64,000 nt of DNA, taken from positions 30,900 through 94,899 of the forward strand of contig JACPZK010000006.1 in NCBI GenBank assembly GCA_016195565.1, in the 5' to 3' direction. The first letter of the stretch is position 1; every line of letters starts with the position of its first letter. Below, piece by piece: positions 6,885-40,369 of this stretch. The notes below the pieces were generated by a model, which saw only the letters and a program-made list of their open reading frames with translations, did not search any database and was not told where the DNA came from. Source of the DNA: Nitrospirota bacterium. Its GTDB lineage: Bacteria > Nitrospirota > Thermodesulfovibrionia > Thermodesulfovibrionales > UBA1546. The translations under genes were made by a program, and so were the position numbers.

Positions 6885-6961
6885 CGCGGGGTGGAGCAGT
6901 CCGGTAGCTCGTCGGGCTCATAACCCGAAGGTCAGAGGTTCAAATCCTCTCCCCGCCACCA
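6885..6961 (+). tRNA. initiator tRNA-fMet (anticodon CAU), CCA encoded
   Basis: CGCGGGGTGGAGCAG...TCGGGCTCATAACCCGA...GGTTCAAATCC...CCCCGCCACCA. It has the C1/A72 mismatch and three G-C pairs closing the anticodon stem. The anticodon arm is identical to that of E. coli tRNA-fMet. Confidence 0.95.
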
Positions 6962-6964
6962 ACT
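6917..6964 (+). repeat. 48-bp direct repeat copy 1 (attL-like), covering anticodon loop to 3' end of tRNA-fMet plus 3 nt
   Basis: CTCATAACCCGAAGGTCAGAGGTTCAAATCCTCTCCCCGCCACCAACT is repeated exactly at 40322-40369. Confidence 0.9.
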
Positions 6965-7489
6965 ATAAATCCATAGCCTTCAAAAATAGAACTAAGACCA
7001 TAATTCGCTTCGAAACAACAAACGTCGTGATTATCAAAGAGGCTATGGCGAAACCAACGAGGAAATGATAATAGTATTTGAGAAGTTCGCCCGAGTCTGC
7101 CCTGACTAAGAAAAAGGACCATCATCGTGAAGTTGTAGACGGCATGCAGCAACTTGAGATATGCGATTATCTGCCCGCTCACCATTTTTCAGACTGGACC
7201 TCTTCCCGACTATACACTTTGACTGGTTCACACCGGTAGGCTATCAATATGGCAACGGCTTGTCAATATGGCAAGAACGCACGTTACTCATTATGAGACA
7301 AAAAGAATAATTCCTGATATTGGAAATTCCTCTTCAGGATTGGGAATATTTTTCAGCGTTAAGCTATAATCTATTATCTCAAAAACAGCAGTTGATCACG
7401 CCAACAGTTTCCTATGCGTTCTCGCTTAGAAGCGCTTACTTTTGGCTGTGAACTCTGTGGTTAAATGTTTTTTCAGGATTATCAAAACC

Positions 7490-8122
7490 ATGGAGAAAAC
7501 GAATACAATGCGATTTTCGAAAAAAACGAACCTTAAAGGATTTTTCTTTGCAGCCTTCGCTCTACTGCTTTTCCTTGTTACTTCACCGGCCTTCGCAGGA
7601 GAACAGGAGCTTGGAGTAGACAAAGCAAAGGGGCACTGGACTGTTTCAACCGGTTATGGAGTCACTCACCCGGGACTCGGCGCCACGGAAACGAAGGTAG
7701 AAACAGCGGAGCTCATATTGAGCTACGGGCACTTTTTATCTGAAGAAGTCGGTAAATCATGGTATCGCGGAAGGCATGAGATAATCGTTGAACTGCCCCT
7801 GCATTATGTTGTCAGCCCTGAAACAACGCCGATGGTCGGCATCACTTTTCTTGCATGCTGGACCTTTACGGCCTCGAAAACGCTTACCCCTTACATCTTT
7901 GGGGGAGGCGGGTTAGTATACACAGACCTCAACGTGCCTGAACTCGGAAGAAAGCTCAACGGCACCCATCAGGTCGGAACGGGGTTCCATTATTTTTTCA
8001 GGAAGAATACCAGTCTGGATTTCAGCTACCGGTTTCATCATATCTCTAACGCCGGAACCGCAACGCCCAACGGACCTCTGAATTCGAGCAAAATACTTTT
8101 CGGCATCTCTTTCTTCCGCTAA
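7490..8122 (+). CDS. PagL-like lipid A 3-O-deacylase / acyloxyacyl hydrolase family outer-membrane protein
   Basis: Signal peptide (FFFAAFALLLFLVTSPAFA), beta-barrel-like alternating sequence, and FSYRFHHISNAG near the C-terminus (PagL His/Ser catalytic region). Start placed at ATG 7490 rather than the track's TTG 7442. Confidence 0.65.
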   Translation: MEKTNTMRFSKKTNLKGFFFAAFALLLFLVTSPAFAGEQELGVDKAKGHWTVSTGYGVTHPGLGATETKVETAELILSYGHFLSEEVGKSWYRGRHEIIVELPLHYVVSPETTPMVGITFLACWTFTASKTLTPYIFGGGGLVYTDLNVPELGRKLNGTHQVGTGFHYFFRKNTSLDFSYRFHHISNAGTATPNGPLNSSKILFGISFFR

Positions 8123-8161
8123 TGCACTCCCCTTTTTAATCTAATTTCTCGAAGGCTGTAT

Positions 8162-8929
8162 TCACATACATCTTTCCGCAGCTTTTCCGTCTTTCCGGCA
8201 GACGAGCAGTACCTCACTCACCAACTCGGTGTCGATCATCCGGGGGAAGAGTGCAAGCTTCTTCTGAAAGCGCAATCCCAGCGACATAAATACATGGCTA
8301 TACCACCACATCGCCTTCTTGCGCCGATGTGTGAGGAACCACATCCCGATATCGAGCAGGCGCGACGATTTCGGCTTCATCCCATAAATAGCGCTCTGCT
8401 CCACAGTGTAGCCGTGCTCCTTGAGCTTGGCGAGCAGGCGCTCTGGTTCGTAACGGCGCCGGTGCCCTACGAAGTCATCGAATGCCGTCCACTGCGATGT
8501 GTGAAGCGGTACTGAGAGGAGAAATGCTGCGCCGGGAGCAGCCACACGTGACAACTCGGATAACGCACCATCATCATCGTCAACATGCTCTACAATGTCG
8601 AGGGCGCAGACGAGATCAAACATGCCATCAGAAAACGGAAGCGAGGACACGAGGCCAGAAACTGCGTTTGCTCCACGTGCGCGCAGTTTGGCAATTGCCG
8701 GCTCGCTGCTATCCACGAAGTATGTATCTTTGAGAGGGAGCCTGGGCCTCAGGCCGGGTGCTACTTCAAGCTGCTTATCCGACGGAGAGACAAGTGAGCA
8801 TACGAGCGGCCAGGTGTTGAAGCGCTCGGGTTCGATCAAATGCGCGTCTGTCCACAGCGGATCGTAAAACCGGCGGTTTGCTTCGAGAAGCTCAGGGTCA
8901 GTACGATTGTGCAAATGGGCTGGATCCAT
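8162..8929 (-). CDS. class I SAM-dependent methyltransferase (compositionally atypical, G+C-rich)
   Basis: LEVAPGLRP (motif I-like) and FDLVCALDIVEHVDDDDGALSEL...GAAFLLSVP (Methyltransf_11/23-like). Last gene of the minus-strand run. Confidence 0.75.
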   Translation of the reverse strand: MDPAHLHNRTDPELLEANRRFYDPLWTDAHLIEPERFNTWPLVCSLVSPSDKQLEVAPGLRPRLPLKDTYFVDSSEPAIAKLRARGANAVSGLVSSLPFSDGMFDLVCALDIVEHVDDDDGALSELSRVAAPGAAFLLSVPLHTSQWTAFDDFVGHRRRYEPERLLAKLKEHGYTVEQSAIYGMKPKSSRLLDIGMWFLTHRRKKAMWWYSHVFMSLGLRFQKKLALFPRMIDTELVSEVLLVCRKDGKAAERCM

Positions 8930-39028: not shown

Positions 39029-39076
39029 ATAATTTTATATTTGCTCAGTGGAGCTGGAACTTTTAAAGACCAAATT

Positions 39077-39799
39077 CTAAATTGCCAGTCCCCCATTAAT
39101 ACCGATAACCTGTCCATGTATATACATGTCTTCTTCAGTACATAAAAAATTAACAACTGATGCTACATCTTCAGGCCTACCTAACCGGTTAACGGGTATC
39201 AGGTTCAGAACCTGCTCTTTGGGAAGCCCTTCTGTCATATCTGTTTCGATAAACCCGGGAGCAACCACATTTATGAGTATGTTTTTCTTGCCGACTTCAC
39301 GGGCTAAGGCTTTGGCAGCGCCGATCAATCCAGCCTTGGAAGCGGAGTAGTTGACCTGACCTGCCTGCCCTATCTGTCCTGACACAGAGGACACAACAAC
39401 GATGCGCCCTTTTTTGGCCTTTAACATGGAGAATAATATTGTGCGGGTCACATTGAAGAATCCGTCAAGATTTGTAGAAAGTACAGTGTCCCATTCGTTT
39501 TTTGTCATCCACATAAGGAGATTATCTTTGGAAATGCCTGAATTGTAGACCATGACATCGGGGGAAAAATCCTCTACCCTTTTTCCTAATGCAGTTTCTG
39601 TCTCTTCATAGCTGGAAACATCGAAGGGTATTAAATCACAGGCGCTTCCCAGTTTTTCTATTTCTGATTTAACCTTTTGGGCAGCCTCATGATTGCTTTT
39701 GTAAGTCAACCAAATATCAAAGCCGGATTGAGCCAGCCGTAAGGCTATGGCGCGTCCTATTCCACGGCTGCCACCAATTATTAACGCAATTTTTACCAT
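39077..39799 (-). CDS. fabG: 3-oxoacyl-ACP reductase (SDR)
   Basis: MVKIALIIGGSRGIGRA, NYSASKAG (YxxxK). Start placed at ATG 39799; the track's TTG 39838 abuts AAGGAGA with no spacer. Confidence 0.85.
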   Translation of the reverse strand: MVKIALIIGGSRGIGRAIALRLAQSGFDIWLTYKSNHEAAQKVKSEIEKLGSACDLIPFDVSSYEETETALGKRVEDFSPDVMVYNSGISKDNLLMWMTKNEWDTVLSTNLDGFFNVTRTILFSMLKAKKGRIVVVSSVSGQIGQAGQVNYSASKAGLIGAAKALAREVGKKNILINVVAPGFIETDMTEGLPKEQVLNLIPVNRLGRPEDVASVVNFLCTEEDMYIHGQVIGINGGLAI

Positions 39800-39831
39800 A
39801 AGATTAAAATACAGAATGTAATCTTTCTCAT
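39793..39831 (-). promoter_or_regulatory. candidate 12-codon leader ORF (MRKITFCILILW) translationally coupled to fabG
   Basis: AAGGAG lies 8 nt upstream of ATG 39831. Its TGG-TAA end overlaps the fabG ATG (ATGGTAA). fabG itself has no Shine-Dalgarno. Confidence 0.3.
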
Positions 39832-40321
39832 AATACAATCTCCTTTATCATGGCCTTGAGCTCCAATGCTGTCTCTTACCCCTTGGGCATGGTGACCTGA
39901 CCTGTAGAAGTAACCTTTACTGTCAGCATAAATACCTCCAGTAAGGATAAAAATCCTGACTTTTATTGTAAAGGACTTGTCAGTTTCTGTCAACATTTCT
40001 GCAGCTAACGTGTTGTTAACAAATAGAATTGTCAGGTTATAGAGCACATAAACTGATCTTCCCCAGATTTAACAGACACTGAGTTAAGTTAGGCTGCCAT
40101 GAGTGTGCCGCCCTTTTCTAAAGTAATTCCACTCGCTCCGAACGACATGCATCATTAGGCTTGAAAGCATAGGATTTTCTGACAAACCATACAAACTTAA
40201 AATATAAAAAAGTATAAAAATATAGCTCAAAAAAACTTAAAATAAATCATCTATGAATATAAAGGGTGGCAAATGGTGCTTATGAGAAATAAGTTATTGA
40301 TATTAAAAGAATTTCTCAGAA

Positions 40322-40369
40322 CTCATAACCCGAAGGTCAGAGGTTCAAATCCTCTCCCCGCCACCAACT
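40322..40369 (+). repeat. 48-bp direct repeat copy 2 (attR-like), orphan 3' part of tRNA-fMet
   Basis: Identical to 6917-6964. The sequence 5' of it (AAAGAATTTCTCAGAA) has no similarity to the tRNA 5' half. Confidence 0.9.

Follow-up and report, generated by a model that had tools for sequence, protein, structure and literature searches.

A lipid biosynthesis cluster on a probable genomic island without recombination genes at the initiator tRNA gene of an uncultured Nitrospirota bacterium

This locus raises the question of how a large lipid biosynthesis and export cluster came to lie between two identical pieces of an initiator tRNA gene (tRNA-fMet) with no DNA mobility gene beside it. The DNA analyzed, called the window throughout, is a stretch of 64,000 nucleotides from a metagenome-assembled genome (MAG) of a Nitrospirota bacterium (contig JACPZK010000006.1 of assembly GCA_016195565.1), and coordinates refer to this window unless another contig is named. 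Our analysis indicates that positions 6965-40321 (33.4 kb) are fairly likely a genomic island that integrated site-specifically at tRNA-fMet, kept both attachment (att) sites and carries no recombination genes, and that resembles in this respect a cis-mobilizable element (CIME).

The borders of the proposed island are set by a direct repeat. An exact search recovered the 48-mer CTCATAACCCGAAGGTCAGAGGTTCAAATCCTCTCCCCGCCACCAACT in two copies, at 6917-6964 and 40322-40369, both on the plus strand and with 0 mismatches, as a preliminary description of this DNA had reported, and none of 100 dinucleotide-preserving shuffles contained any 48-mer match. In a window-wide search this was the sole long dispersed direct repeat, with a length of exactly 48 nt, and no third, partial or decayed copy was found in the window when each half was searched with up to 3 mismatches. 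ARAGORN and Rfam agreed on a single tRNA in the window, a tRNA-Met(CAT), in whose sequence we read two initiator marks, the C1xC72 mismatch and an anticodon stem closed by three G:C pairs; three G:C pairs beside the anticodon loop are a mark of bacterial initiator tRNAs. The first nucleotide of the 7-nt anticodon loop (CTCATAA) opens the repeat, which ends 3 nt past CCA; this upholds the initial reading of the first copy as the 3′ part of an intact initiator tRNA, anticodon loop onward, plus 3 nt. In the sequence preceding the second copy (40322), alignment A2 showed nothing similar to the tRNA 5′ half, nor did ARAGORN or Rfam, and the statement that this copy is not a decayed tRNA gene likewise held. 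These elements, with the repeat copies labeled as the left and right att cores (attL and attR) of the proposed island, and with the empty (attB) and circular (attP) forms composed from them, are as follows.

6885-6961, plus strand: intact tRNA-Met(CAT) of initiator type (ARAGORN; Rfam tRNA, 64.7 bits; identical tRNA in the relatives L011 and L012).
6917-6964, plus strand: attL core, 48 nt of identity that open at the anticodon loop and close 3 nt past the tRNA 3′ end.
40322-40369, plus strand: attR core, a displaced orphan 3′ fragment of tRNA-fMet; the junction from island arm through core to the NamZ gene is spanned by the MAG contig L001.
attL junction: GTAGCTCGTCGGG, core, ATAAATCCATAGCC.
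attR junction: GAATTTCTCAGAA, core, CAAGAGGCTAAATT.
attB (empty-site) junction: GTAGCTCGTCGGG, core, CAAGAGGCTAAATT.
attP (circle) junction: GAATTTCTCAGAA, core, ATAAATCCATAGCC.

The same chromosomal site is found empty in four relatives (L011, L012, L020 and L021), in which OsmC and tRNA-fMet are joined directly to NamZ. A query made up of the tRNA 5′ part, the core and the sequence to the right of the second copy matched exactly in two members of a species-representative genome collection, Nitrospirae bacterium LacPavin...MAG_43_14 (L011) and Nitrospinota bacterium KR13_N2.mb.31 (L012), and BLAST placed both on the window with 77-97% nucleotide identity over the left flank (RecA through OsmC to the tRNA) and 85-91% over the right flank from NamZ onward. 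The exact pattern had no match in the JGI metagenomes, and a later NamZ-based scan of these metagenomes gave L020 and L021. L020 shows the order RecX-PilT-RecA-LigT-CinA-PgpA-OsmC-tRNA-Met-NamZ-MurU with proteins 76-96% identical to those of the window (NamZ 89% at the amino acid level), while L021 is more distant (OsmC 77%, NamZ 78% identical); over the empty-site relatives the flanking proteins are 77-96% identical to the window (OsmC 77-96% at the amino acid level in L020 and L021). In alignment A2 the empty site equals the left side of attL, the 48-nt core and the right side of attR, with the switch base-exact at the core borders, and the relatives carry a single tRNA without a second core copy. 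The empty tRNA-fMet/NamZ site that had been proposed as a check was therefore found four times, its junction lying exactly at the borders of the 48-nt core.

On our preferred reading, the chromosomal initiator tRNA-Met gene (attB) would have recombined site-specifically with an identical 48-bp core (attP) on circular incoming DNA. A crossover inside the core, most likely in the anticodon loop, would regenerate the tRNA at attL and push the 3′ two-thirds of the original tRNA gene out to attR, beside NamZ, in a reaction of the type performed by tRNA-targeting tyrosine integrases. We infer a class-A crossover because the identity block begins exactly at the anticodon loop, and its exact point is not fixed because the T-loop also lies in the identity block. 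A regenerated tDNA together with a displaced 3′ fragment is the mark of island ends, and the anticodon-centered attP is the commonest class in Islander, at 2083 of 3919 islands (PMC4383910). The locus shows what Islander looks for at the DNA level, with the intact target tRNA at one end, a directly oriented and 100% identical displaced fragment at the other, and an uninterrupted target in L011, L012, L020 and L021 whose borders fall at the repeat. Dating the insertion from the orphan copy was tried and rejected; taking the spacer divergence of ~9% from the closest relative, as estimated from A2, zero changes in 48 nt has P ~0.1 even for an old insertion, and thus the perfect identity of the copies is uninformative, without discriminating power.

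Integrase, excisionase, resolvase, transposase, relaxase and phage families were absent from the 31 island genes, the arms and the whole 64-kb window, which confirms the earlier statement that the arms hold no integrase, excisionase, transposase or conjugation gene and extends it to the entire island and window. The two island proteins without a Pfam family showed no mobility family in Pfam at E ≤ 1, and a PHROGs scan of the six island open reading frames (ORFs) whose Pfam assignment was weak or lacking gave no match; each gene outside these six has a metabolic or envelope Pfam domain. Recombinase pseudogene traces, which had been suggested for inspection, were not seen in the arms, since the ten longest six-frame arm pieces gave noise only and no recombinase in Pfam at E ≤ 10, and these pieces likewise held no remnants of an integrative and conjugative element (ICE) or an integrative and mobilizable element (IME). 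An SSV-type split integrase was considered for the 81-aa ORF at 6940-7185 (minus strand) and rejected; the ORF stops inside the core and so would not be extended in the circular form. The arms themselves contain the following features.

6965-7489: left arm, non-coding, GC 0.40, no recombinase trace, missing from all empty sites; its limits agree with those first given, the PagL-like gene starting at 7490.
39812-40321: right arm, non-coding, GC 0.35, no recombinase trace.
7244-7274: 12-nt direct repeat TCAATATGGCAA in the left arm, copies at 7244 and 7263, 19 nt start to start.
40193-40244: 12-nt direct repeat AAACTTAAAATA in the right arm, two copies, 40 nt start to start.
39965-39993, minus strand: promoter-like site TTGACA-17-TACAAT in the right arm (11/12, by consensus match only), ~150 nt upstream of the first cluster gene.

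The 12-nt repeats might be binding sites for a regulator or a recombinase, as judged from the sequence, and the promoter-like site suggests that part of the right arm is the control region of the operon. Neither arm matched phage DNA or the flanks of the cluster in other genomes. A related element carrying an integrase was not found among the cluster loci of other genomes, the viral contigs or phage DNA, and no plasmid-borne copy of the cluster was found, the SPASM/ApeP protein matching only generic radical SAM (S-adenosylmethionine) proteins in plasmids at <30% identity.

With this gene content the island falls outside most classes of mobile DNA. It has no own integrase together with a relaxase or origin of transfer (oriT), as an ICE or IME would, nor the type IV secretion system of an ICE, these families being absent from the island, and it has neither the structural, replication or packaging genes nor the integrase of a prophage or phage satellite. 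A CIME is defined by keeping attL and attR while having no integration or transfer genes (PMC6323972, PMC5704250), and this is what we observe, both att sites being present with no genes for integration, excision, conjugation or mobilization. As a class, CIMEs derive from an ICE or IME whose recombination and transfer modules were deleted, and they are excised and transferred once a cognate ICE has integrated into one of their att sites. The absence of an integrase, which had been described as unusual, is thus confirmed, but it is less unusual than supposed because CIMEs are already a named class. Like the CIMEs of Streptococcus thermophilus in ICEberg 2.0 (CIME19258, CIME302 and CIMEL3catR3), the island has intact att repeats at the 3′ end of a conserved gene and cargo only; unlike them, it shows no sign of a parental ICE or IME (no remnants, no tandem partner), lies in an uncultured Nitrospirota bacterium rather than a Firmicute, and has tRNA-fMet as its target. 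It shares with the tDNA islands of Islander the intact tRNA with a direct 3′ fragment, the identity block from the anticodon loop to the 3′ end and a typical size (PMC4383910), but Islander requires a tyrosine integrase gene inside the island, and here there is none. The closest functional analogue with biosynthetic cargo is the toxicogenic region TR1 of Streptomyces. A biosynthetic cluster reportedly makes up essentially the whole of TR1, which is said by Zhang and Loria (2017) to be bounded by att sites, to have no integrase of its own and to transfer only with a partner element. TR1 differs in having a cognate tandem integrative partner and experimental transfer, whereas the island here has no partner within 64 kb. 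Large secondary-metabolite clusters also sit at tRNA genes with short direct repeats in the Yersinia high-pathogenicity island (asn-tRNA) and the colibactin pks island (asnW); both retain a P4-like integrase gene beside the tRNA, which is missing here. TR1, which specifies thaxtomin, was mobilized in cis by the ICE-like TR2 (Zhang and Loria, 2017, cited in PMC5704250).

An integrase gene usually sits next to the tRNA, and in our preferred reading it was either lost by deletion beside the tRNA or never carried in cis. Today the island would not be self-mobile and would be excised only with a cognate integrase from elsewhere, supplied in trans or brought in when a related element accretes.

Several observations weigh against this reading. 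No integrase or remnant of one is visible, so that the integrase is inferred from the scar alone, and a k-mer scan, which returned one 12-nt pair per arm, found no motif common to both arms of the kind expected of arm-type binding sites. The composition of the island is almost host-like and marginally distinct, and would not alone flag an island: its GC is 0.445 against 0.427 for the flanks, its GC at third codon positions (GC3) 0.468 against 0.436 (p = 0.05), and the tetranucleotide usages of the two show a correlation of r = 0.93, with chunk-wise means of 0.90 within the island, 0.88 within the flanks and 0.85 between them. The comparison of 6965-40321 with its flanks, which had been proposed as a check, thus gives no independent support to acquisition. 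The empty-site comparison covers this locus only, as opposed to the relatives' whole genomes. The attL junction is seen in the window contig alone, the short-read contigs breaking in the repeat. Finally, nucleotides 1-72 of contig L001 differ from window positions 40059-40130, with 99.96% identity from 40131 onward, so that the divergence begins 190 nt inside the right arm; the break point is a small hairpin (40129-40145), the 72 nt have no match in the window, the fetched loci or the viral contigs, and this 5′ end could be a variant right end or interior of the island or a chimeric contig end.

The host-like composition would fit a donor of the same phylum, because Nitrospirota-like sources account for all of the closest homologues of the cluster, and a different Nitrospirota lineage is the probable donor. 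Other Nitrospirota have this cluster, its gene order unchanged, at unrelated loci, with proteins 62-93% identical (L013-L017 share the order). It adjoins NadA and an SLT transglycosylase in L014-L016, and a PIN-MazE pair and DEAD/MZB genes in L017; no tRNA gene or copy of the 48-nt core was found at these alternative loci (L014-L017). The suggested search for the same cluster at other tRNA loci thus recovered it at other loci, but at ones without a tRNA gene. The contigs of the closest homologues, P0002 and P0003 (82%), end before the cluster border, and that of L013 (78%) ends 144 nt past the short-chain dehydrogenase/reductase (SDR) gene. Searches for exact-protein matches to the SDR (with two candidate starts) and to OsmC returned none, probably because of start-codon differences. 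As a side observation, the cluster of the more distant L017 follows a region (6654-9164 of that contig) with a PIN-MazE pair, a pair of DEAD helicase and MZB genes and 1.2 kb of non-coding DNA; these surroundings resemble a variable region, and this cluster, too, may lie within an island.

Among the alternatives, the strongest is that the island is still active, with an integrase specific for tRNA-fMet, whose gene lies on a helper element or in another part of the genome, acting on its att sites, and that it moves as pure cargo in trans or in cis after accretion. We regard this as possible though unlikely. Both 48-nt cores are complete and perfectly identical, the arms have been retained as non-coding DNA and the sites in the four relatives are precisely empty, all of which speaks in its favor, and CIMEs have been shown experimentally to move in this way (PMC6323972, PMC5704250). 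However, the lack of any integrase within 64 kb argues against it, as does the finding that the 45-nt tRNA part of the core has no exact copy in the viral-contig collection, and the identity of the cores carries no weight for the reason given with the dating attempt.

It is improbable that the polarity is reversed, i.e., that the common ancestor already had the island at this tRNA and that the L011, L012, L020 and L021 lineages lost it by precise excision. Excision would also leave precise empty sites, and the composition of the island is host-like; but at least three to four independent precise excisions would be needed, including one in the distant L021 (NamZ 78%), which is less parsimonious than a single insertion. 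In addition, both empty-site MAGs from the genome collection are NCBI records (the JAPLLK01 and JAHILQ01 assemblies), and there is no NCBI-derived homologue of the amine oxidase of the cluster between 71% and 100% identity, which suggests, as far as such database matches go, that these genomes lack the cluster. The presence of the cluster at other loci in more distant Nitrospirota also counts against this alternative.

A very unlikely route is insertion without an integrase, by RecA-dependent (Campbell-type) recombination over the 48 bp with foreign DNA that carried a fragment of tRNA-fMet. A single crossover in 48 bp of homology would give the same attL/attR structure, an intact recA lies nearby and the island has no integrase. 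Against this, efficient recombination by RecA needs a homology not much shorter than 48 bp. The incoming DNA would also have had to contain precisely this segment of the tRNA, anticodon loop through 3′ end, a block that in itself betrays an attP once made by an integrase (PMC4383910).

We also find it very unlikely that the arrangement is an assembly artefact, in which a chimeric contig was joined via the conserved tRNA-fMet and the island belongs to another organism or locus. In its favor, the source is a metagenome-assembled genome and all short-read contigs break in the 48-nt repeat, with attL spanned by the window contig alone. Contigs from five Sequence Read Archive (SRA) runs (SRR12113409, -11, -13, -14 and -15) match the window at 100% identity on either side and all end inside the repeat, as is to be expected because a k = 31 assembler meets a two-copy 48-mer there; island and flank contigs co-occur at this identity in the same runs. 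On the right side, the contigs L004, L006 and L007 from Logan continue from the cluster across the right arm into the repeat, so that the orphan fragment is continuous with the island arm on its left, and the independent NCBI MAG contig L001 (JACOSZ010000286.1; 99.96% identical) spans right arm, core and NamZ, which makes attR real. Joining two normal tRNA loci cannot make such an attR junction, and the tetranucleotide correlation of island and flank argues for a common genome. In the source MAG, the amine oxidase and NamZ have protein accessions two numbers apart (MBI3377233 and MBI3377235), which fits the SDR lying between them. The last explanation would derive the second copy from a second tRNA gene that was duplicated or decayed, or from a longer segmental duplication with no connection to the cluster; it is refuted by identity that stops at exactly 48 nt on both sides, by the missing tRNA 5′ half and by relatives with a single tRNA and no second copy.

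Integration as a site-specific tRNA-fMet island thus being the reading we prefer, the cargo that it would have delivered can be described. Between the repeats lie 31 genes, 30 of them on the minus strand.

10370-39811, minus strand: lipid biosynthesis and export cluster of the ladderane-type/aryl-polyene-like kind, 28 genes (Pfam; NCBIfam TIGR04072; gene order of L013-L017).
8162-10389, minus strand: two-gene module of a class I SAM methyltransferase (8162-8929) and a B12-binding radical SAM protein (8974-10389) (Pfam).
7490-8122, plus strand: PagL-like outer-membrane β-barrel (lipid A 3-O-deacylase family), leftmost island gene (Pfam PagL, 2.8e-15; 210 aa in Logan contigs).

The core enzymes of the cluster comprise an SDR, an amine-oxidase-like desaturase, five ketosynthase (KS) or chain-length factor (CLF) proteins, three acyl carrier proteins (ACPs), two AMP-ligases, a thioesterase and an ApeI/FabA-like protein. 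The radical SAM (rSAM) enzymes are three B12-binding proteins (B12-rSAM; the island total being reported as five with 8974-10389), a fusion of a SPASM-rSAM with ApeP and a HemN-like rSAM, and the remainder includes PlsC-like and LpxL-like acyltransferases, LolA, an MMPL-like exporter, DUF3261, a GT2-DUF2062 protein (GT2, glycosyltransferase family 2), a deacetylase and a flavin adenine dinucleotide (FAD) oxidoreductase. In order of transcription, the genes encode the following.

First: SDR ketoreductase, phytoene-desaturase-like amine oxidase, KS, ACP, PlsC-like acyltransferase, PaaK-like ligase.
Second: SPASM radical-SAM/ApeP-like dehydratase fusion, LolA, MMPL-like exporter, DUF3261, ApeI/FabA-like dehydratase, thioesterase.
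Third: KS, degenerate KS-like protein, two B12-radical SAM proteins, GT2-DUF2062, LpxL-like acyltransferase, ACP.
Fourth: HemN-like radical SAM, polysaccharide deacetylase, KS/CLF pair, ACP, a 445-aa protein with a faint condensation-domain signal.
Fifth: FAD oxidoreductase, B12-rSAM, acyl ligase, B12-rSAM, methyltransferase, PagL-like barrel (plus strand).

The product of 23446-24819 matched NCBIfam TIGR04072 ("lipid biosynthesis B12-binding/radical SAM protein") with 618.9 bits against a cut-off of 360, and this match above threshold marks the cargo as a ladderane-type or aryl-polyene-like lipid cluster. Clusters of this kind have been described in anammox bacteria, in Desulfotalea and in many further phyla (PMC2649909, PMC9902471). 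The cargo has the same hallmark set as the anammox and Desulfotalea clusters, with several FabF paralogues, ACPs, a phytoene-desaturase-like amine oxidase and B12-radical SAM proteins, and here aryl-polyene-type export genes (LolA, MMPL-like, DUF3261, ApeI/ApeP-like) stand alongside this set; in contrast to the anammox clusters, this one belongs to a host outside the anammox group. An anammox host, which the ladderane-like genes might suggest, was rejected, identical proteins being listed under Nitrospirae or Nitrospirota bacterium and close relatives under Thermodesulfovibrionales. Among carriers other than anammox bacteria, those tested to date made no ladderanes (PMC2649909).

The left end of the island has a different character from the rest, with a GC of ~0.49 in its first 3 kb (7-10 kb) against 0.44 elsewhere. 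The two-gene module shows unusually high conservation: its methyltransferase is 72-92% identical across Nitrospirota, Proteobacteria, Methylophilus and Immundisolibacter, and the pair of B12-rSAM and methyltransferase occurs by itself at 6369-8585 of contig L100 (90% and 91% amino acid identity), beside cyclic di-GMP (c-di-GMP) signaling genes and with no lipid cluster; its best NCBIfam similarity, below threshold, is to HpnJ. The cargo is therefore a mosaic built from at least two modules, though delivered in one event, namely a lipid operon that would have its own promoter region, the B12-rSAM/methyltransferase module and the PagL-like gene. Of the proposal that the lipid pathway was acquired horizontally as one unit, the single insertion event stands, given the four empty sites, while the mosaic nature of the cargo, shown by the pair standing alone in L100, qualifies the single unit.

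The genes outside the repeats are housekeeping genes, OsmC-family on the left and peptidoglycan recycling on the right, as first described and now supported by Pfam assignments to OsmC and NamZ and by a MurU/AmgK-like fusion.

6277-6696, minus strand: OsmC-family gene, left chromosomal flank, next to the tRNA in the empty-site relatives also (Pfam OsmC).
40464-41633, plus strand: NamZ (exo-β-N-acetylmuramidase), right flank, directly downstream of the tRNA in the empty-site relatives (Pfam NamZ_N, NamZ_C).

The left flank carries genes for RecX, a PilT-like ATPase, RecA, LigT, CinA, PgpA and OsmC, and the right flank genes for NamZ, the MurU/AmgK-like fusion, TilS, a ParE-type toxin-antitoxin pair, GltX and GlnS. 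This neighborhood is structurally fluid even without the island. In L012 (1045-3460), NamZ and the MurU/AmgK-like gene are present as fragments only, matching window positions 40322-40844 and 42030-42349, after which the sequence jumps to tilS; L011 (2231-2235) is without the CinA gene that the window and L020 have. The pair of a ParE toxin and an "Unstab_antitox" antitoxin occupies window positions 45568-46115, between tilS and gltX, and is also present in the sister MAG contig L001. Farther to the right, a low-GC stretch (0.38-0.41) at 52400-55140, between the prepilin peptidase and RecG genes, encodes a TIR-domain protein (52794-53564) and a PIN/DUF2281 toxin-antitoxin pair (54500-55140), with two ORFs without a family match (52439-52714 and 53992-54411), and looks like a small defense or addiction islet. 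A tandem 9-nt repeat (GCCGGTGCT-like; five overlapping 27-nt copies) lies at 59029-59094 within the minus-strand ORF 59019-59276, and the predicted product of the repeat is a low-complexity stretch rich in Ala, Gly and Ser.

A cargo-only tDNA island without an integrase is an already known kind of element, of which this locus is a well documented example. Ladderane-type/aryl-polyene-like clusters are distributed patchily over many phyla, and neither their product nor the reason for this distribution is known (PMC2649909, PMC9902471). The locus described here documents, with base precision, the arrival of such a cluster in one block at a tRNA gene, and since sister genomes still show the empty site, it provides direct evidence for horizontal transfer of a lipid pathway. 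Island finders that require an integrase, such as Islander and ICEfinder, would miss it. The existence of near-identical hosts with and without the island offers a natural comparison for asking what the lipid does. If the island is indeed a pure-cargo element that is mobilized in trans, with its integrase supplied from elsewhere, ladderane-type clusters would spread across phyla as integrase-less hitchhikers.

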